Shown: piece by piece, positions 623-20,859 of the stretch
Layout: each line of letters opens with the position of its first letter
How positions within the stretch are numbered: position 1 is the first letter of the stretch
Assembly (NCBI GenBank): GCA_045632145.1
Contig: JAZQWB010000030.1
Span: forward strand, 48,333 to 112,332
From: Eubacteriales bacterium
GTDB lineage: Bacteria > Bacillota > Clostridia > Oscillospirales > CAG-272
Length of the DNA stretch: 64,000 bases
Reading direction: 5' to 3'
The notes under the pieces: model-generated
What the model saw: only the letters and a program-made list of their open reading frames with translations
Databases searched by the model: none
What the model was told of the DNA's origin: nothing
Translations under genes and position numbers: made by a program

Positions 623-3600
623 ATGGCAAAAAAACCAAATTGTACTATAAGATTGCTCATTGTTGCGATAGCAATAATGCTTCTTATAGGCATCACATCG
701 GTTGTAACCTTTGCTGCGGATAATGATGCGTCAAGCAACGGAATTGTTTCAGTAAGTTTATCGCTTGATGACAGCATTGTCGTTAAAATTCGCACCACTG
801 CAACCAATGATGATGGAGCTTTCCTGAAGATCAGTCATAATGGAAAGGTCAGCAAGATTACCACTAATTACGGAGGAGTATTCTCATACGTTGACATTGC
901 TCCTCAGAATTTTGGTGATGAGCTTACCGCCGTATTGTATGCTAAAGACGGTAGTCAGATCGGTGCTCCTGTTACATTCAGTGTAAAGTCTTATTTGAAG
1001 GCACTTCTCGCTCTTGATTATGAGAGCAGCGGTTGTGATACCGAATTAGAGTACAGCGCAATGCGTGAGCTTGCGGTAAATCTGCTTAATTACGGTGCAG
1101 CAGCACAGACTTACACGGGTCATAAGGCTGACACGCTTGTGAATGCAGATCTCAGCGACGAGCTTAAGGCTCTTGCCGGCGCTCCTATATCCGTAACAAC
1201 CACTGACAAGGCTGTTAACGGTGATGCTTGGGTAGGCGCAGGTGTTCGTTTTGACTTCAGACTTGGTATTTACTATGTATTTGAGGCAGCATCGCTTGAC
1301 GGAGTTACTGCTACCATTAATGGTGTGAATGTTATTCCCGAGATTTACGATGCAAGTAAAAATCAGTATATCATCCGTTACAGCAGCTTTGGTGCTGATG
1401 AGATGAACAACGTTTTTACGGCGAAGCTTAATATTGGTGGAGCAGAGCAGACCTATTCTTATAGTATCAAGTCCTACGTTGCCGCAAAGGGTGGAGATGA
1501 TTCCGCACTTGCAAAGCTTGTTAATGCTGCTTATACATACGGATATGCGGCGGTTGCTTACGTTGGAGATATCATCTCTCTCGATCCTACCTTCGAAACT
1601 CCCGGTTACGTTGGTATTGATAGCAAGGGATATGATTTTACAGGCTCCAAGTATGAGGCTATGATTCTTCCTGCTCTTAATTATCAGGATTACACTATGA
1701 ATACAGTTGCTACCGCATCTGCTAATCCCAATGCTAAGGCAAGATTTACCTTAACTAAGGGTGCTTTCACTTACTCTGTTGACGTGACTGTTGATGACTG
1801 TATCAGAGTAAACGACAAGTATTATAGCATTTATGATTACGAGGCTCTTAACTCCGAGGGCATTGAGGTGACCTATAACAAGGATACAGGCTATACCTTC
1901 AGAGCAAAGACCGCACAGAATCTTACCTATCTTGCAGCTTACGGTAATGCGCTTACCGTAATTGGTGATATTACTATCACACGCGATACTGATGATTTGG
2001 TTATTGCTAATCAGCTTAATATCGGTACTGAAACCGAAAAGGCAACTGTAACCGTTAACAATGCCGCAGGTGCAACCCGTGCTATGAGATTTAATGACGG
2101 CGCAGGTCTTTATGTTGCGGAAAACAGCACACTGTCCATAACAAAGGGTGGTTCTTATTCTATCATTGGATATTCACAGGCTACATCTATCGTAGTTGAC
2201 GGTACTCTTAATACTCAGGGTATTATCAGACTTGAGAAGGGTGTTGTTCTTAACGAGAATTATGAGTATGGATTTGTTCCTGCACTCTTCGTTAGAAAGG
2301 GAACAGTAAATATTGACGGCGGTCAGGTTCTTTCCAACTCTATTCAGGTCGGTAGTGAGAGAGAGGGCTTTAAGGGTAATCTTATTATCACTCAGAATGC
2401 TGCAGGTGATAGAGCAGGATCCGGTGTTAGCGGTATTGTTTTAAATAACACTATCAGCTATGAAAACCGTACGTTAGCTCTTAGATACGTATTTGCAAAC
2501 GGTAAGGTATCTCTTACTGATAACACCACCGTTGGTCTTACAGCGATGGACGTGAGAACTAACAAGAGCGCTTATGTTGATTTTGGTTCCGGTATTGATG
2601 TTACCACCACGGGCGGCTACGTATATCTTGTAGGTACTTGGTCTGTTGCAGCAGATTACCGTTATGCTATTCATACCGATGCGAAGTTCACCGGTCCTCT
2701 TAGCGGTAATGCGTTGGTTTGTGTAGGTTATGCAACAAGCAATTACTTTATTAATTATACTGACGTAGAGCTTAAGGTTGACGGCGAAACCAAGCTTGTT
2801 CGTGTTGCTAGTTATACAACAGGATCTGCAAAGAGAAATATGGCAACCTCCTTGCTCACCGATAATGGTGATGGAACCAAGAGTATTGCTGATATTTCTG
2901 TTACAAGTGGCGAGTATCTTACCACAGCAGATGCACCTCTTGCCCTTGGCAACCAGGGCAACTTCAACAAGGCTGTATATAATGGAACCGAGATTTATTA
3001 TAAGGCTATTGGCAGTCATACTCATGCTACTGAAACCACAGTTGATAAGGTTGATTCTACCTGTAAGGTAGAGGGTCATGAGGCATACTATGTATGTGAG
3101 TGTGGCAAGCTCTTCTCTGATGAGGCTTGCACAAATGAAATCGCTGCTCCTGCTGTTATTCCTACAAAGGAACATACAGTGGTTGTTGATGCCGCTGTTG
3201 CTCCCACATGTAGTGAAAACGGACTTACTGAGGGTAAGCATTGTAGCGCTTGCGGTACTGTAACCGTACCTCAGAATATCGAGCTTGCACTTGGTCACCT
3301 TGATGCAAACTCCGACTTCGTTTGCGACCGTAACGGTTGTGGTGCTAAGCTTTGCACCAGTCATAATGAGGTTGTTGATGCCGGCAAGGACGCGACCTGT
3401 ACTGAGGACGGTCTTACCGAGGGCAAGCATTGTTCTATCTGCGGCGAGATCACTGTAGCGCAGACCGTTATCCCTTCTCCCGGTCATAACGAGGTTACAG
3501 ATGCGGCTGTTGCTCCTACCTGTACATCCACAGGTCTTACTGAGGGGAAGCATTGTTACAGATGTAATGAGGTGTTCACAGAGCAAACGGTTATCGATGC

Positions 3601-5224
3601 TATTGCTCACAAGAATGCAACATATGTAGAGCTTGTTGATGCAAGCTTCGAGAGCGAGGGCGTTGTTGCTCACTATGCATGTCCTGATTGCGGTAAGTAC
3701 TATCTTGACGTTGAGCTTACAAAGGAGATTTCTTCTCCCATACTTCCTAAGCTTGATACTGTTAAGTATACTACCGCAACAACAAGACCTGCTTTTGCTA
3801 CAACTCTCACACTTGATACCATATTCACTCTTGTCAGTGACGAGATCGAGTATTCTGTCCCCGTTCAGGTTGACAGCATGCTTGTTGTTGATAGAGGCGA
3901 GGGTGAAATCGTTGTAACAAAGTATGACTACCAGAAGCTCAACACCGATATTGTAACCGTAACTTACGATGAAGTAACCGGTTATACATACTCTGTAGCT
4001 GAAGGCCAGACCGAAACCGGTATTACAGGTATTGGTATCCGTTCTGCGGGTAGAGATCTTACTATCACCGGTTCTGTTGAGATTATTGGTGCTGCAAGAT
4101 TTGGTACTAATACAAATCTTATAATCGGTACAGACGATAAGCCCGCTCACGTTAAGTTTGAAGTTACCACAGCAGATACAAACGGTCTTGGTATTTGGGA
4201 CGGTGCTGACCTGACAGTAAACAAGGGAAGTACTCTTGATGTAAAGAATGTTAGTGACAACACTATTTACATTAATGCAAAAGCATCGATAATTACTATT
4301 GCAGGAACATTGACCTCAAACAGCACTATTAATTCCAACGGTTGTACATTTAATGTAACATCTACTGGTTCGGTTGTTACTAAGCAATCCTTCTATAATA
4401 ACGGAGATACAACTCTTAATGTTGACGGTTACTTTGAGGCAACCTACCTTTACATTAAGTCTAATGGTTATGTTACTGTTGGTGGTGAATTGGTTCTTAA
4501 AGCCGATGGAAAGACAACTACAATTGCCGGAGCTGCAGCAGCAAACTCTGACTATGAATATGGCTTCAGACCTCGCCTTCTCGTTTTGGGTACTTTAACT
4601 GCAAACGGCGTTATCAACTGTAACTCCATTCAGGTTGGTAGTGAAAAGGATAATAGATCCGGAGTAATGAATCTTAAACACAGCGGAAATAACGTTGTTG
4701 TTATTAACAAATCTGATGTTAGAATTGTTTTTGCTAAGGGCGAAGTAAATCTTCTCAATACTGCAACCGGAAAGTGTGCTTTTGATGTTGGTAACCAGAA
4801 TGCCACTACCAATGTAGTGATTAAGAGCGGAATGACATTCAATACAAACGTAAATTACGGAAGTATCATAGGTGAATGGAAGAACGGAACCTATAGCGTT
4901 TATATTGAGGACGGTGTAACCTTTAACGGCTCAGTTAATAACTTTACCGCTATGTCAAGCAACACTAAGACAATGTACTTCTTCAGAACAGAAACCGTAA
5001 CTATTGATGGAGTTGAAAAGGCGGTTACTCTTGCATGCTCCAATCCTTCTACAGGAACAGCGGGTTACTATTCTTACGATGCTATCAATAGTATGAACCC
5101 TGTAGTGGCAGGTGCAAATTACGTTTCTACATCTGAAACCGCAACCTACGGTGATCTCGGTAGCTTCATCAAGGCTACCTACACCGATGAGAGCGGTACT
5201 GTTCACACAATTTATTATCAGTAA
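623..5224 (+). CDS. 1,533-aa secreted repeat protein of unknown family (two paralogous large modules flanking His/Cys repeats)
   Basis: GGAGG sits 8 nt upstream of the ATG. Signal peptide ...LLIGITSVVTFAADN. Internal duplication (YEYGF[VR]P...NSIQVGSE occurs twice). No anchor motif recognised. Confidence 0.9.
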   Translation: MAKKPNCTIRLLIVAIAIMLLIGITSVVTFAADNDASSNGIVSVSLSLDDSIVVKIRTTATNDDGAFLKISHNGKVSKITTNYGGVFSYVDIAPQNFGDELTAVLYAKDGSQIGAPVTFSVKSYLKALLALDYESSGCDTELEYSAMRELAVNLLNYGAAAQTYTGHKADTLVNADLSDELKALAGAPISVTTTDKAVNGDAWVGAGVRFDFRLGIYYVFEAASLDGVTATINGVNVIPEIYDASKNQYIIRYSSFGADEMNNVFTAKLNIGGAEQTYSYSIKSYVAAKGGDDSALAKLVNAAYTYGYAAVAYVGDIISLDPTFETPGYVGIDSKGYDFTGSKYEAMILPALNYQDYTMNTVATASANPNAKARFTLTKGAFTYSVDVTVDDCIRVNDKYYSIYDYEALNSEGIEVTYNKDTGYTFRAKTAQNLTYLAAYGNALTVIGDITITRDTDDLVIANQLNIGTETEKATVTVNNAAGATRAMRFNDGAGLYVAENSTLSITKGGSYSIIGYSQATSIVVDGTLNTQGIIRLEKGVVLNENYEYGFVPALFVRKGTVNIDGGQVLSNSIQVGSEREGFKGNLIITQNAAGDRAGSGVSGIVLNNTISYENRTLALRYVFANGKVSLTDNTTVGLTAMDVRTNKSAYVDFGSGIDVTTTGGYVYLVGTWSVAADYRYAIHTDAKFTGPLSGNALVCVGYATSNYFINYTDVELKVDGETKLVRVASYTTGSAKRNMATSLLTDNGDGTKSIADISVTSGEYLTTADAPLALGNQGNFNKAVYNGTEIYYKAIGSHTHATETTVDKVDSTCKVEGHEAYYVCECGKLFSDEACTNEIAAPAVIPTKEHTVVVDAAVAPTCSENGLTEGKHCSACGTVTVPQNIELALGHLDANSDFVCDRNGCGAKLCTSHNEVVDAGKDATCTEDGLTEGKHCSICGEITVAQTVIPSPGHNEVTDAAVAPTCTSTGLTEGKHCYRCNEVFTEQTVIDAIAHKNATYVELVDASFESEGVVAHYACPDCGKYYLDVELTKEISSPILPKLDTVKYTTATTRPAFATTLTLDTIFTLVSDEIEYSVPVQVDSMLVVDRGEGEIVVTKYDYQKLNTDIVTVTYDEVTGYTYSVAEGQTETGITGIGIRSAGRDLTITGSVEIIGAARFGTNTNLIIGTDDKPAHVKFEVTTADTNGLGIWDGADLTVNKGSTLDVKNVSDNTIYINAKASIITIAGTLTSNSTINSNGCTFNVTSTGSVVTKQSFYNNGDTTLNVDGYFEATYLYIKSNGYVTVGGELVLKADGKTTTIAGAAAANSDYEYGFRPRLLVLGTLTANGVINCNSIQVGSEKDNRSGVMNLKHSGNNVVVINKSDVRIVFAKGEVNLLNTATGKCAFDVGNQNATTNVVIKSGMTFNTNVNYGSIIGEWKNGTYSVYIEDGVTFNGSVNNFTAMSSNTKTMYFFRTETVTIDGVEKAVTLACSNPSTGTAGYYSYDAINSMNPVVAGANYVSTSETATYGDLGSFIKATYTDESGTVHTIYYQ
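3010..3700 (+). repeat. five divergent in-frame His/Cys repeats (H-x6-12-C-x8-9-HC-x2-CG, e.g. HTVVVDAAVAPTCSENGLTEGKHCSACG)
   Basis: Repeated peptide motif read from the translation of 623-5224. The DNA copies are diverged. Confidence 0.75.
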
Positions 5225-5242
5225 TGCGAAAGGAGTACTAAA

Positions 5243-6628
5243 ATGAATAGAATAACTAAAGTTTTATCAGCGATTGTTATAATTTTAATACTCGTCGCAT
5301 TTGCGGGTATGATCTACCTTAATGGTGGTTTTGATTTTAGTCACACTTGTGAGAGCGTCTGCTCCGAGTGCGGCAAGTGTACCGACGTTTCTTGCACCGA
5401 AACTGCTTGCGCAGAAAAGTGCGAGGGACATCAGGTTACACCTCCTGCACACATCTGTGAGAGCGTTTGCTCCGAGTGTGGTAAGTGCACCGATGCAGCT
5501 TGTACTGAATCTGCTTGTGCAAACAAGTGTGAGGGTCATCAGGTAACACCTCCTGCACACACCTGTGAGAGCGTTTGCTCCGAATGTGGTAAATGCACCG
5601 ATGCCGCTTGTACTGAATCTGCTTGCGCTAGCAAGTGTCAGGGACACGGTCCTCATGACTGTGAGAGCATTTGTAACGATTGTCAGAAATGTACCGATCT
5701 TGCTTGTACACATAGTGAGTGTGCAAACAAGTGCGATGGACATAATACCAATAATTCGGGTTATGCTTATCAGACATATCAGCTTAATCTTATGTCCTTC
5801 AACATTCGTACTTTTACTAACAATGATACAGGTAATACTCACTGGGATAAGCGTAAGGATGCACTTGTAAGCTTCCTCAACAATTCCGAGGCTGATATCA
5901 TTGGTATGCAGGAAGTTACAAAGACACAGTTCGAGTATATTCAGGCAAATCTTGCCGGCAATTACACTGCTCTTAATTTCCCCAGACAGGGTGGCTCAAA
6001 TCCCGAGGGTCTTTCATTCATTTATGATTCCACTAAGTTTGAGTTTGTTTCCTCTGAAAAGTACTGGCTTTCGGAGACTCCTGAGGAGCAGTCTTACGGT
6101 TGGGGTGAATCCTATTATCGTATTGCGGTAGTTCTTGTTCTCAGACACATAGAGACAGGCGAGATCGTTAAGTCTATAAACACCCACGGTCCTCTCCTTG
6201 ACGAGGCTAACGTAAAGGCATACGAGCTTATTATGGAAAGATCTGTAAACGAGGGTGATCCCTTCACATTCCTTTGTGGTGACTTCAATGCTACACCCGG
6301 TAATATCGGATACGTTGCTGTTGCTGAGGAGCTTCAGGACTGCCGCGTAAGCGCAGATTATAGCTCTGCTCGTGATCATGTAACCTTTACAGGTTGGGGT
6401 AGCTATGTTGACGGTGAAACACCTGATCATATCATCGACTTCTGCTTTGTATCCAAGGGCGATAATGTTGACGTTAAGTCCTACGAGGTTCGCACCGACA
6501 GATGGGGCGACGGAAATTATTATTCCGACCACTATGCAGTACAGACTGTTGTAGAAATCACCTACAAGAGTACCATTCCTTCGCAGGGAGGCAACGGCTT
6601 CGACGGTGAAATCGATACAGCAAAGTAG
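5243..6628 (+). CDS. membrane-anchored endonuclease/exonuclease/phosphatase (EEP) family protein with N-terminal Cys-rich repeats
   Basis: AAAGGAG RBS. N-terminal TM helix VLSAIVIILILVAFAGMIYL. EEP motifs GMQEV, CGDFNATP and YSDHYAV. Four CESVCSECGKCTD..C....C...C.GH repeats. Confidence 0.9.
   Translation: MNRITKVLSAIVIILILVAFAGMIYLNGGFDFSHTCESVCSECGKCTDVSCTETACAEKCEGHQVTPPAHICESVCSECGKCTDAACTESACANKCEGHQVTPPAHTCESVCSECGKCTDAACTESACASKCQGHGPHDCESICNDCQKCTDLACTHSECANKCDGHNTNNSGYAYQTYQLNLMSFNIRTFTNNDTGNTHWDKRKDALVSFLNNSEADIIGMQEVTKTQFEYIQANLAGNYTALNFPRQGGSNPEGLSFIYDSTKFEFVSSEKYWLSETPEEQSYGWGESYYRIAVVLVLRHIETGEIVKSINTHGPLLDEANVKAYELIMERSVNEGDPFTFLCGDFNATPGNIGYVAVAEELQDCRVSADYSSARDHVTFTGWGSYVDGETPDHIIDFCFVSKGDNVDVKSYEVRTDRWGDGNYYSDHYAVQTVVEITYKSTIPSQGGNGFDGEIDTAK
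5342..5743 (+). repeat. tandem in-frame 108-bp (36-codon) repeat: 3 close copies plus 1 divergent shorter copy
   Basis: Copies start at 5342, 5450, 5558 and 5654. Copies 2 and 3 are near-identical at the DNA level. Confidence 0.9.
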
Positions 6629-6736: not shown

Positions 6737-6994
6737 TTAGTTAGAAATGTAGGGAAGAAGTGCCATCTGGCGTGCTCTCTTGATAGCTACGGTGAGCTGT
6801 CTCTGGTGGAGAGCGCAGTTGCCGCTAACACGTCTGGGGAGAATCTTAGCTCTCTCAGAAGTGAACTTTCTAAGCTTAGCGATATCCTTGTAATCGATCT
6901 CGGTAACCTTATCCTGGCAGAAGATGCAAACCTTCTTTCTTCTGTGGTTCTGACGGAATGCAGGACGATTATTGTTTTCCATGAGTTTTATCAC
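6737..6994 (-). CDS. rpsR: 30S ribosomal protein S18
   Basis: RRKKVCIFC...IDYKD...[42 protein letters not shown]. Confidence 0.95.
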
Positions 6995-7065
6995 CTTTCC
7001 GACTCACGATTTCTATATTGCACCTACCACAGTGAGCCTAGTGGCAGATGGACGAGTTACCCAAA

Positions 7066-7518
7066 TTAGAAGGGAAGGCTCTCGTCGCCGGGAATTTCTT
7101 CGAACTCAGCACTGCTGGTGCTGTTGAAAGAGGGAGTACCGTATGCAGCGGGAGTGTAGCCCTGCTGAGCTCTCTCACCTGCCTGTGCTGCTGCGGGCGC
7201 GCCGAAGCTAACCTCGTCTGCAACAACCTCGGTAACGTATCTCTTCTGGCCGTTGTTGTCAGTCCAGTTTCTTGTCTGAATGCTACCGCATACGATGATG
7301 CTGGAGCCCTTCTTGAAGTAACGGGAAACAAACTCAGCCTGCTGACGCCATGCAACTATGTTGATGAAATCAACCGACTGCTGACCCTGATCAGCCTTGG
7401 AATAACGGCGGTTAACACCGATAGAGAAGCTACATACAGAAAGTCCGCTAGTAGTCTGCTTAAGCTCGGGATCTGCCGTCATGTGGCCCATAAGAATGAC
7501 CTTATTTAAATCTGCCAT
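7066..7518 (-). CDS. ssb: single-stranded DNA-binding protein
   Basis: MADLNKVILMGHMTADPELKQT... OB fold and acidic tail ...GDESLPF. The start at 7518 has an AAAGGA RBS, whereas the longer ORF start at 7539 has none. Confidence 0.93.
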   Translation of the reverse strand: MADLNKVILMGHMTADPELKQTTSGLSVCSFSIGVNRRYSKADQGQQSVDFINIVAWRQQAEFVSRYFKKGSSIIVCGSIQTRNWTDNNGQKRYVTEVVADEVSFGAPAAAQAGERAQQGYTPAAYGTPSFNSTSSAEFEEIPGDESLPF

Positions 7519-7575
7519 AGTTATATGCCATCCTTTCAATAAATAGTATGTGGTATTACCACTTTAATGCGTGCA

Positions 7576-7941
7576 TTAAGCCTCGGTTACTTCAACCTCA
7601 GCGGTAGCTGCGGGAGCTTCAACAACTTCCTCAGCCTTAGCTGCCTTCTCGATCTTGGTGGTGGTCATGTAACGAAGAACACCTTCGGTAATGCCAAGCA
7701 CACGCTCAAGCTCAAGAGGGAAGCTGGGTTCGCTCTTATAAGAAACAAGCACATAGTATCCTTCGGTTACGTAGTTGATAGGATATGCGAGTCTGCGCTT
7801 GCCCCACTCGTTAACAGTAACGTCAGAGCCGTTATCGTTAATGAGGTTAACGAACTTCTCAACAGTAGCAGTGATTACATCCTCAGCAAGGTTGCCGCTT
7901 ACTACGAAGAGAGTCTCGTAAGAACAAATCTTCTTTTCCAT
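7576..7941 (-). CDS. rpsF: 30S ribosomal protein S6
   Basis: YETLFVV...WGKRRLAYPI motif; first gene of the rpsF-ssb-rpsR operon; AAAGGAGG RBS. Confidence 0.95.
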   Translation of the reverse strand: MEKKICSYETLFVVSGNLAEDVITATVEKFVNLINDNGSDVTVNEWGKRRLAYPINYVTEGYYVLVSYKSEPSFPLELERVLGITEGVLRYMTTTKIEKAAKAEEVVEAPAATAEVEVTEA

Positions 7942-8135: not shown

Positions 8136-8969
8136 ATGCAGGTTAATGAGAAGGCATATGCCAAAATAAACCTCTTTCTTGACGTGACAGAGCGTAGGCA
8201 AGACGGCTTTCATAATATTGTAAGCGTTATGCAGTCTGTTAGCCTTTGCGATACTATTTTGTTTAATGCCAGTTGTAGCGATACTACCTTGATTCGAATC
8301 ACGTCTGATGACCCCGGTCTGCCTCTTGATGAAGACAACCTTATTTATAAGGCGGCAGAGAAGTATCTTTCTTACTACGGTATCTGCGCAGAGGTCGATA
8401 TTCATCTGACTAAGCAAATTCCTATTGGTGCAGGTCTCGGTGGCGGATCATCCGATGCCGCCGCTACTCTTCGAGCTCTTGACAAGGTGTTTAATTTATC
8501 TAGTGGAAACGATCTGCTGCGATTGTCTGCAGAAATTGGTAGCGACGTTCCTTTCTGCCTTATTGGTGGACGTGCTTTGTGTACGGGACGAGGCGAGCAT
8601 CTCGAAGCTATAAAGGAGTATCCTATAAACCATTTTGTTATTTCAATAGGTAAGGAAAAGGTTTCTACTCCTAAAGCTTATAGGACACTTGATGAGAAAT
8701 ACAGCAACTTTGACGGTAGTGATTATCATCCTGTTCAGTATAGCGGTCAACTTTATAACATTTTTGAAAGTGTTACCGGCATCAATGAAGTTGATATAAT
8801 CAAAGAAATAATGACTAAAAACGGGGCAGAATCAACCTTAATGAGCGGAAGCGGTCCTTCCGTCTTTGGAATTTTCAGGAATTCCGATGATGCAAAAAAG
8901 GCCGTCGAGATTTTAAGATCAAGCGGTTTTTCAGCCTTCGAATGTCATTCTGTAAGGGAGAATTTATGA
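8136..8969 (+). CDS. ispE: 4-diphosphocytidyl-2-C-methyl-D-erythritol kinase
   Basis: KINLFLDV...RQDGFHNI...IPIGAGLGGGSSDAAATLRAL (GHMP kinase motif). Confidence 0.92.
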   Translation: MQVNEKAYAKINLFLDVTERRQDGFHNIVSVMQSVSLCDTILFNASCSDTTLIRITSDDPGLPLDEDNLIYKAAEKYLSYYGICAEVDIHLTKQIPIGAGLGGGSSDAAATLRALDKVFNLSSGNDLLRLSAEIGSDVPFCLIGGRALCTGRGEHLEAIKEYPINHFVISIGKEKVSTPKAYRTLDEKYSNFDGSDYHPVQYSGQLYNIFESVTGINEVDIIKEIMTKNGAESTLMSGSGPSVFGIFRNSDDAKKAVEILRSSGFSAFECHSVRENL

Positions 8970-19512: not shown

Positions 19513-19533
19513 AGGCAAGAAAATAAAATAATG

Positions 19534-19613
19534 CTTATCAAGAGTGGCGGAGGGACTGGCCCTATGAAACCCGGCAACCTGTTTTTTCAAGGTGCTAAAT
19601 CCCGATAGATGAG
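19534..19613 (+). promoter_or_regulatory. SAM-I (S-box) riboswitch aptamer, unusually short (no P4 hairpin evident)
   Basis: CTTATCAAGAGTGGCGGAGGGACTGGCCCTATGAAACCCGGCAACC...AAGGTGCTAAATCC..AGATGAG matches the S-box core; located upstream of metK. Confidence 0.9.
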
Positions 19614-19623
19614 TTATGCTCTA

Positions 19624-19662
19624 AAGCTCGGGAGGAATGCCATCTTCCGAGCTTTTGATTTT
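19624..19662 (+). terminator. riboswitch expression-platform terminator
   Basis: aagctcgggag-gaatgccat-cttccgagctt followed by ttgatttt, 16 nt before the metK ATG. Confidence 0.8.
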
Positions 19663-19677
19663 CTGAAAGGTGAAAAA

Positions 19678-20859
19678 ATGAAAAAGATTCTCTTTACTTC
19701 CGAGTCCGTAACTGAAGGACATCCCGACAAAATTTGTGACAAAATTTCCGATGCTATTCTTGACGAGATGCTTGCACAGGACCCTATGTCCCGTGTTGCT
19801 TGTGAGACCTTTGCTACTACCGGTATTATTACCGTAATGGGCGAAATTACCACACAGGCTCGCGTTGATATCCAGGATATCGTACGTAAGACCGTTGCTG
19901 AGATTGGCTATGACAGAGCAAAGTATGGCTTTGATGCTACTACCTGCGCGGTGCTCAGCTCTATTCACGAGCAGAGTGCTGACATCGCTCTTGGCGTTGA
20001 CAAGTGCCTTGAGGCTAAGGAGGGTGAGCTTAACGATGAGCTTGATACAGGTGCAGGTGACCAGGGTCTTATGTTTGGTTACGCGTGTGACGAGACTCCC
20101 GAGCTAATGCCTCTCCCCATTTCTCTTGCTCACAAGCTTGCGAAGCGTCTTACCGAGGTAAGAAAGAACGGTACTCTCAACTATCTCCGTCCCGACGGAA
20201 AGACTCAGGTTACTGTTGAATACGTTGACGGTGTTCCTACCAGAATTGATACTATCGTAGTTTCCTCTCAGCACTCTGCAGAGATTGATTCTGCTACCAT
20301 CCGTAAGGATATTATTGACAAGGTTATTCTTCCTATTATTCCTTCCGAGCTTCTTGACGGTAAGGTTAATATCTACGTTAACCCCACGGGCAGATTTGTA
20401 ATCGGTGGTCCTCAGGGTGACACAGGTCTTACCGGTAGAAAGATCATTGTAGATACATACGGTGGATATTCTCGTCACGGTGGCGGTGCATTCTCCGGTA
20501 AAGACCCCACAAAGGTTGACCGCAGTGCATCCTATGCCGCTAGATACGTTGCAAAGAATATCGTTAAGGCTGGTCTTGCAAAAAAGTGCGAGGTGCAGAT
20601 TGCATATGCTATCGGTATTGCAAAGCCCGTATCCGTTATGATCGATACCTTTGGTACCGCAACCGTTGATGAGGAGAAGATTGTTAATGCTGTAAACCAG
20701 CTTGTTGACCTTCGTCCTGCTGCAATTATCAAGAAGTTTGAGCTTCGCAAGCCCATCTACAAGCAGCTTGCTGCATATGGCCATATGGGTAGAGAAGAGC
20801 TTGGTGTAAAGTGGGAAGAGTGCGATATTGCAGATCAGCTCAAGGCTCTTTGCAACTAA
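19678..20859 (+). CDS. metK: S-adenosylmethionine synthase
   Basis: [21 protein letters not shown]..., [38 protein letters not shown]. The ORF-track start at 19609 lies inside the riboswitch. Confidence 0.96.

Follow-up and report, generated by a model that had tools for sequence, protein, structure and literature searches.

Tandem Cys/His metal modules are regarded as intracellular and largely eukaryotic, and exported Firmicutes proteins are usually poor in cysteine. In the zf-CXXC domains of MLL and DNMT1, which carry a C-x2-C-x2-C motif, eight ligands bind two Zn ions, one of which is held by the three motif cysteines plus a distal cysteine. In the metallothionein SmtA histidine joins cysteine as a ligand, and nine ligands per 30 residues is about the density seen in a metallothionein beta-domain. 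Here we analyze a gene encoding four tandem units of seven cysteines and two histidines each, located in a 64,000-nucleotide (nt) stretch of contig JAZQWB010000030.1 from a Eubacteriales bacterium. This stretch is called the window, and all coordinates refer to it unless another locus is named. The gene (5243..6628, plus strand) encodes a protein of 461 residues in which the units stand between an N-terminal hydrophobic segment and an endonuclease/exonuclease/phosphatase (EEP) domain. The unusual aspect is a tandem Cys/His module serving as an extracellular stalk in Gram-positive anaerobes.

We think it probable, from sequence and modeling, that the module is a metal-organized extracytoplasmic spacer, with Zn the probable metal, and that it forms the stalk for the EEP domain. 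Each repeat would be an autonomous mini-domain of ~30 residues from an undescribed family, and after export a unit most likely folds into a rigid spacer around metal ions bound by H1, by all seven cysteines, and by H30 (or C29). As eight of these candidate ligands are near-invariant, the most economical model would have two tetrahedral Zn(II) sites per unit, one Cys4 and one Cys3His, with position 29/30 providing an accessory ninth ligand. Short proline-rich linkers would string the units into a beads-on-a-string stalk able to hold a catalytic or binding domain, the EEP phosphoesterase in the window gene, clear of the membrane so that it extends into the cell wall or through it.

Four Cys/His units between a hydrophobic segment and an EEP domain

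From the N terminus to the C terminus, the protein comprises the residues MNRITK, the hydrophobic segment, the four Cys7His2 units, and the EEP domain, as read from the open reading frame (ORF) list and Pfam PF03372. The core of all four units is 90 nt (30 residues) with seven cysteines and two histidines spaced exactly as H-x-C-x3-C-x2-C-x2-C-x4-C-x4-C-x3-C-x2-H. Both this spacing and the four start positions agree with an earlier reading of the bare sequence (the original prediction). All four units are on the plus strand and score 35-45 bits against the family profile described below. Unit 1 (5342..5431, residues 34-63, HTCESVCSECGKCTDVSCTETACAEKCEGH, 42.9 bits) and unit 2 (5450..5539, residues 70-99, HICESVCSECGKCTDAACTESACANKCEGH, 44.8 bits) are each followed by the linker QVTPPA (5432-5449 and 5540-5557, respectively), and unit 3 (5558..5647, residues 106-135, HTCESVCSECGKCTDAACTESACASKCQGH, 45.3 bits) by the linker GP (5648-5653). 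Unit 4 (5654..5743, residues 138-167, HDCESICNDCQKCTDLACTHSECANKCDGH, 35.3 bits) is offset by 96 nt and is the most divergent copy, with 60-70% amino acid identity to the others. Tandem Repeats Finder reports the array at 5342-5646 with a period of 108, 2.8 copies, 85% matches, and a score of 435.

A six-frame search of the window with the family profile gave no further units. A chance origin of the array is excluded because each unit scores 35-45 bits and none is found elsewhere in the window. The coding frame is set by the EEP domain and by the homologs, and the ORFs that overlie the array on the opposite strand and in other frames are shadows of the repeat. Low complexity and a frame artefact were likewise rejected as explanations.

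Copies 2 and 3 had been taken for nearly identical at the DNA level, which was read as a sign of recent expansion or ongoing homogenization. They are in fact identical at 80 of 90 nt (88.9%) with seven synonymous codon differences; the remaining pairs are 68-80% identical, and no two copies share an exact DNA stretch longer than 21 nt. By the Nei-Gojobori method the synonymous divergence (dS) is 0.56 for copies 2 and 3 and above 1 or saturated for all other pairs, with ratios of nonsynonymous to synonymous divergence (dN/dS) of 0.05-0.26 among the copies. The copies are therefore far diverged at synonymous sites, and the array is old and is kept by purifying selection on the protein. On these values (dS at least 0.56 with the low dN/dS), recent duplication or gene conversion in the window gene was rejected.

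The EEP catalytic domain (5792..6532, plus strand, residues 184-430) matches Exo_endo_phos (PF03372) with an E value of 8.2e-13 and 49 bits against a gathering cut-off of 24.5, and the match covers the whole model (1-225). The motifs that fill the catalytic and metal-binding roles in this family (N...E...H...D-x-N...D-H) are all in place as SFNIR 185, GMQEV 221, NTHG 313, GDFN 346, and SDHY 428. Matches to PDB sequences were 3g6s (2.5e-21), 3l1w, 3mpr, and 4c1r (1.3e-12), and so the nearest solved relatives are uncharacterized structural-genomics proteins (3g6s, 3l1w, and 3mpr) and a mannosyl-6-phosphatase (4c1r). The window enzyme is likely a scavenger of nucleic acid or phosphoglycan.

The N-terminal hydrophobic segment (5261..5320, plus strand, residues 7-26, VLSAIVIILILVAFAGMIYL) is 20 residues long and is preceded by the positively charged N terminus MNRITK. 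The sequence reads as a signal-anchor, or as an uncleaved or signal peptidase (SPase) I signal, with the N terminus predicted inside and the C terminus outside. No lipobox of the form L-[ASTVI]-[GAS]-C is found in the window protein, in which the first cysteine occurs only from unit 1 onward. Hence, it is not classed as a SPase II lipoprotein, and was placed in the class having a hydrophobic N terminus without a lipobox. The proposed arrangement of the array as a stalk between a membrane anchor (residues 7-26) and the EEP domain is supported.

The module family and its export

No family for the module was found in Pfam or NCBIfam with a single unit or the whole protein, nor in scans of 8 and then 88 carriers, and at E values up to 1 the window protein had no NCBIfam match. 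The stalk matched no PDB sequence at E values up to 10, and a PDB profile search returned only non-significant zinc-finger knuckles of seven residues (E 0.06-4). Foldseek searches of the PDB gave no matches for a single-unit model and five for a four-unit model, all with E above 5 and template modeling (TM) scores of at most 0.1. No description of the module was found in the literature searched, and the carriers are named only 'hypothetical protein' in their sources. The window protein itself has no exact entry in the assembly collection. The failure of the original prediction to recognize the module was thus justified, as the profile and structure searches show. It is best filed as a new, undescribed domain family of the general kind of small Cys/His metal-organized modules.

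An initial protein search, with the stalk as query, returned 20 matches, nearly all consisting of a lipoprotein signal plus one or more units, and a two-unit profile search gave only short fragments without names. A family profile was then built from 31 units and scored against 1.84 billion protein cluster representatives, of which 448 matched at E values up to 1e-3, 207 up to 1e-10, and 55 up to 1e-30. The matched proteins have 1-15 units each and lengths of up to 7394 residues. The set analyzed closely comprised 187 carrier proteins in which the profile marked 631 units. Length variants were seen among units from P0021-P0168, namely a 29-residue form with C13-x3-C ('CGKCTSDC') and a form with extra residues ahead of the knuckle ('CPVEGCGKC').

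The 24 genome loci recovered are all metagenome-assembled and come from uncultured Clostridia (Eubacteriales, Oscillospiraceae, Acutalibacteraceae, and Christensenellaceae). The metagenome-assembled genomes (MAGs) with a source in the title are from animal guts (roe deer, goat, sheep, and rabbit). Several genomes have multiple carrier loci. At L004, 19 units are spread over three reading frames of a 16.6-kb stretch, and L003 has 14 units on both strands. Carrier genes cluster in these two genomes, as adjacent genes bear arrays at both loci.

A lipoprotein-type signal, that is, a hydrophobic segment ending in a lipobox, is present in 150 of the 187 carriers, and the first unit starts a median of 10.5 residues after the lipobox cysteine. 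A further 23 carriers, the window protein among them, have a hydrophobic N terminus without a lipobox, and only three have an RR-like motif. In giant proteins the units are placed between domains. The partner domains found by scanning 88 carriers are extracytoplasmic types without exception. They include enzymes (EEP, Endonuclease_1, NS endonuclease, SNase, 5'-nucleotidase, metallophosphoesterase, GDSL lipases, and NAGPA) and binding or adhesin domains (Flg_new (Listeria-Bacteroides repeats), Big_2, Big_3, CBM-like, CBM26, CBM6, and BspA-type LRR_5). The original prediction had placed the array outside the membrane by the positive-inside rule alone. The carrier signals and partner domains, added to the positively charged N terminus, settle that location far better. 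Judged from these sequence features, the module acts outside the cytoplasm and is exported through Sec, hence unfolded. Aerobic Firmicutes keep cysteine out of exported proteins (70% have none), and this exclusion is much weaker in anaerobic Firmicutes (33%) (Daniels et al., PMC2823432), which makes reduced, metal-binding surface cysteines plausible in strict anaerobes.

The export signals also bear on an iron-sulfur reading of the units, in which the core motif C7-x2-C10-x2-C13 would hold a [4Fe-4S] or [2Fe-2S] cluster and the array would be redox-active and possibly electron-conducting. The motif itself fits such a reading, and an anoxic, sulfide- and iron-rich habitat could in principle allow spontaneous cluster assembly. 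We nevertheless find the proposal hardly credible. The signals are of the Sec/lipoprotein type rather than Tat, and a protein exported by Sec crosses the membrane unfolded and without a cluster inserted in the cytoplasm. Moreover, redox enzymes are not among the partners, which are hydrolases and domains of the adhesin type, and the conserved histidines suit Zn better. Membership in the Fer4 family was rejected: no Fer4 profile matched up to an E value of 10 in the Pfam scans, the fourth cysteine follows at x4 and not x3, and proline after the cysteine is uncommon. The motif is not followed by Cys-Pro; position 19 is threonine in 51% of units, and proline is not among its six commonest residues. 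An ordinary ferredoxin-like Fe-S domain, which had been named as the alternative to an exported module, is therefore unlikely.

Candidate ligands, predicted fold, and copy number

Conservation was computed over 527 distinct ungapped units. C7, C10, and C13 are conserved in 100%, C18, C23, and C27 in 99%, C3 in 98%, and H1 in 96%. Near the C terminus of the unit the ligand candidates exchange: H30 is present in 440 units, C29 instead in 83 (13%), both in 8, and neither in 55. When neither is present the unit is usually the last of its run (43 of the 51 such units that could be placed in a run). Histidine replaces C23 in two units. Positions 7-11 form a CPxCG-type knuckle (C-P-x-C-G-K), with proline at position 8 in 41% of units and glycine at position 11 in 80%.

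The original prediction considered disulfide knots as well as metal ligands, and the conservation and the H30/C29 exchange suggest that the Cys/His pattern is better read as metal ligation. A knotted unit would have disulfides within the module, plus one intermodule disulfide or a free cysteine, like the EGF-like or granulin-like repeats of eukaryotes, and would give a rigid stalk without metal. Its location outside the cytoplasm is suited to such bonds, some Clostridia encode DsbA/VKOR-type enzymes (PMC12453122), and a compact predicted fold without regular secondary structure suits knotted mini-proteins equally well. A knot is unlikely, however, because the number of cysteines is odd (seven in 495 of the 631 units), because H1 and H30 are conserved yet histidine cannot pair, because histidine and cysteine interchange (H30 with C29, and occasionally at C23), and because a CPxCG-type knuckle is present. 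The hosts, moreover, are MAGs from animal gut contents and are presumed to be strict anaerobes. The only PDB profile matches, although not significant, were zinc-finger knuckles, which is consistent with the metal reading.

Positions other than the ligands are also conserved. K26, which adjoins C27, is conserved in 98% of the units and D/N15 in 97%. Position 12 covaries with position 25 (K12 with D/E25 in 288 units vs 7, and G12 with T25 in 38 vs 8; Fisher p 2.5e-35) and also with the H30/C29 state (p 9e-21), but these statistics ignore the shared ancestry of the units and the p-values are thus inflated. Two covarying sequence types of unit can be discerned, K12/D-E25/G29-H30 and G12/T25/C29. 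The covariation may reflect either a compact fold in which the C10-C13 loop lies beside the C23-H30 segment or the existence of two subfamilies.

An AlphaFold2 model of the single unit, made with an alignment of 150 diverse units, had a mean predicted local distance difference test (pLDDT) score of 83.9 with 19 residues at 90 or above. Apart from isolated bridges and a single short turn of helix, the model has no regular secondary structure. In the four-unit model each unit shows the same pattern, with block-mean pLDDT values mostly of 73-85 in the units and 57-70 around the two QVTPPA linkers. The predicted TM (pTM) score was 0.29, which together with the pLDDT dips at the linkers indicates beads on a string without fixed orientation between units. 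Across the family the linkers are 0-8 residues long and 25% proline.

The strict spacing and this fold also bear on whether the arrays are metallothionein-like surface buffers, which mainly bind or sequester Zn, Cu, or Cd and for which spacing would be secondary. Nine ligands in 30 residues, a lysine adjoining a cysteine (K26), and a variable copy number would all be expected of a buffer. We consider this quite unlikely given the fixed spacing, the confident predicted fold, and the conserved non-ligand features (D/N15, G11, and the K12-D/E25 covariation). The units contain none of the C-x-C or CC motifs typical of metallothioneins, and in the full-length carriers examined the module serves as a tether or lies between domains, with enzymes or binding domains attached; short stand-alone matches are mostly from short contigs.

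Copy number varies among homologs of the enzyme. Relative to the window protein with its four units, P0076 (66% identical in the EEP domain) and P0047 (44%) also have four, P0080 (37%) has three, and P0029 (47%) has seven. The two closest genome relatives, L001 and L002 (66.5%), have a single unit embedded in a giant surface protein. At these loci (L002 85-7614, encoding a 2509-residue protein, and L001 7701-9200), the EEP domain and its one unit form an internal domain and not a separate anchored gene. As read from the sequences, the relatives differ here by a fusion or fission of genes. Elsewhere in the family, P0023 (611 residues, seven units) and P0206 (646 residues, eight units) are 100% identical save for one exact 35-residue stretch of unit plus linker, which may be either a true unit-number polymorphism or an assembly collapse. 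No length variation was seen in the clusters of P0047 and P0080 (four members each). The expectation that copy number would vary thus holds for the family, and no variation was shown for the window gene itself.

The spacer reading rests on the proline-rich linkers, the pLDDT dips and low pTM score, the unit numbers of one, three, four, and seven among EEP homologs, the P0023/P0206 pair, and the dN/dS values. The units adjoin a membrane anchor or separate the domains of giant adhesin-like proteins. These positions would also suit a module that anchors or targets the protein by binding peptidoglycan, a secondary wall polymer, or a ligand of host or dietary origin. The window stalk is acidic overall (21 D/E vs 8 K/R), and such a charged surface could bind cations or polymers. 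This role seems improbable, however, as the surface residues vary while the ligand core is invariant, unit number is very variable among homologous enzymes, and Pfam scans gave no similarity to known wall-binding repeats.

Several points weigh against a Zn-organized spacer that tethers the EEP domain. The nine candidate ligands do not split neatly into tetrahedral sites, and a thiolate cluster of three metals or a single 5-coordinate site is just as possible. The window protein lacks a lipobox, unlike most carriers, and its hydrophobic segment could be a cleaved signal, in which case the protein would be released, not tethered. To these are added the inflated covariation p-values and the taxonomic restriction, which rests on the 24 metagenome-assembled loci. 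A further proposal, which we judge very unlikely, is that the units are metal-thiolate cluster beads (of the Zn3(Cys7His2) type, or spontaneous Fe-S) whose assembly outside the cell requires anoxic, reducing conditions. The array would then be either a redox- or oxygen-sensitive stalk, which on oxidation collapses or lets go of its cargo, or a chain of closely spaced redox centers on the surface of Gram-positive gut anaerobes. In both cases this kind of extracytoplasmic metallo-structure would be new.

Genomic surroundings and comparison with known systems

The gene upstream of the EEP gene (623..5224, plus strand) encodes a secreted surface protein of 1533 residues that carries a different Cys/His repeat. 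Its stop codon (5222-5224) lies 18 nt upstream of the ATG of the 461-residue ORF. An AAGGAG ribosome-binding site (5230..5235, plus strand, read from the sequence) is located 7 nt before the ATG. As this site begins only 6 nt past the upstream stop codon, the two ORFs are probably co-transcribed. The two-gene order is kept in L025, the nearest relative having that layout, where the upstream protein is 61% identical. At L025 6001-6396 the repeat units contain two in-frame stops and the contig ends inside unit 3, which probably means that short reads were misassembled in the repeats, although a pseudogene is possible.

The second repeat type occupies window positions 3000-3720 (residues ~795-1030 of the upstream protein) and is roughly H-x10-C-x10-C-x2-C-x15-H, e.g., HTVVVDAAVAPTCSENGLTEGKHCSACGTVTVPQNIELALGH. 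It has no significant match in Pfam or NCBIfam. The giant protein with the embedded EEP domain at L001 and L002 has the same kind of Cys/His repeats, which are present many times in the L002 protein. The repeat looks like another unannotated extracellular module of these organisms and probably binds Zn.

Directly downstream of the EEP gene, three small ORFs lie on the opposite strand (6737-7941, minus strand). From translations judged by eye we take these to be an rpsF-ssb-rpsR cluster and the ORF at 8136-8969 to be an ispE-like kinase. Given these neighbors, the surface-protein gene pair appears to be in housekeeping surroundings and not in an obvious mobile element. Farther along the window, an S-adenosylmethionine (SAM) riboswitch (RF00162) was found at 19532-19615 (plus strand, 66 bits, E 3e-13), directly upstream of the ORF at 19609..20859.

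Cysteine makes up 23% of the module and candidate ligands 30%. It occurs in up to 15 copies and directly follows the lipid anchor in hundreds of surface enzymes and adhesin-like proteins from uncultured gut Clostridia. If it is metal-organized, strict anaerobes would build surface stalks from metal-dependent beads, and this would bear on the display of nucleases, phosphatases, lipases, and glycan-binding proteins, on cell-surface metal demand, and on the oxygen sensitivity of the envelope. For annotation, it is a new domain family missed by current libraries. As an apparently autonomous unit of 30 residues, it is also attractive for structure determination or as a design scaffold.

Among described modules, zf-CXXC is similar in that it is likewise small and Cys-dense, with a C-x2-C-x2-C motif and eight ligands; our module has eight near-invariant ligands in 30 residues and little regular secondary structure. 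However, zf-CXXC domains are eukaryotic, nuclear, DNA-binding, and ~45-50 residues long with two CGxCxxC motifs, whereas the module is bacterial, exported, and tandem, has histidine as a ligand candidate, and has one C-x2-C-x2-C per unit. Membership was rejected, as there was no Pfam match and the MLL CXXC domain was matched in the PDB profile search at an E value of only 2.5. The resemblance to the rubredoxin/zinc-ribbon CPxCG and C2H2 knuckles is local and consists of C7-P-x-C10-G-K. The C2H2 knuckle 'KCPECGK' is what the seven-residue PDB profile matches show, and the overall ligand pattern of the module (H-C7-H in 30 residues) is different.

Metallothioneins (the mammalian beta-domain and SmtA/BmtA) share the ~9 ligands per 30 residues and the lysine adjoining a cysteine, but the module differs in its fixed spacing, conserved non-ligand positions, confident predicted fold, export, and fusion to enzymes. 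Membership in the metallothionein or SmtA families was rejected on the lack of a Pfam match, the fixed spacing, and the conservation of K26, D/N15, and G11. The SCIFF peptides (six cysteines in forty-five residues, TIGR03973) are also Clostridia-specific, Cys-dense, and short. However, SCIFF is a stand-alone ribosomal peptide that a radical-SAM maturase modifies, whereas the units lie inside large Sec-exported proteins. SCIFF membership was rejected, as there was no NCBIfam match and the immediate neighbors are the surface-protein gene on the upstream side and the rpsF-ssb-rpsR and ispE-like genes on the downstream side, with no maturase among them.

In position and presumed job, the module matches the Pro/Thr/Ser-rich or Ig-like stalks of Gram-positive surface proteins and lipoproteins, which likewise are spacers of variable length set between a membrane or wall anchor and a functional domain, with a copy number that differs among homologs. 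The difference is that the spacer described here is made of Cys/His-rich beads, which are unexpected for exported proteins of Firmicutes, a group whose aerobic members largely avoid cysteine in such proteins (PMC2823432).

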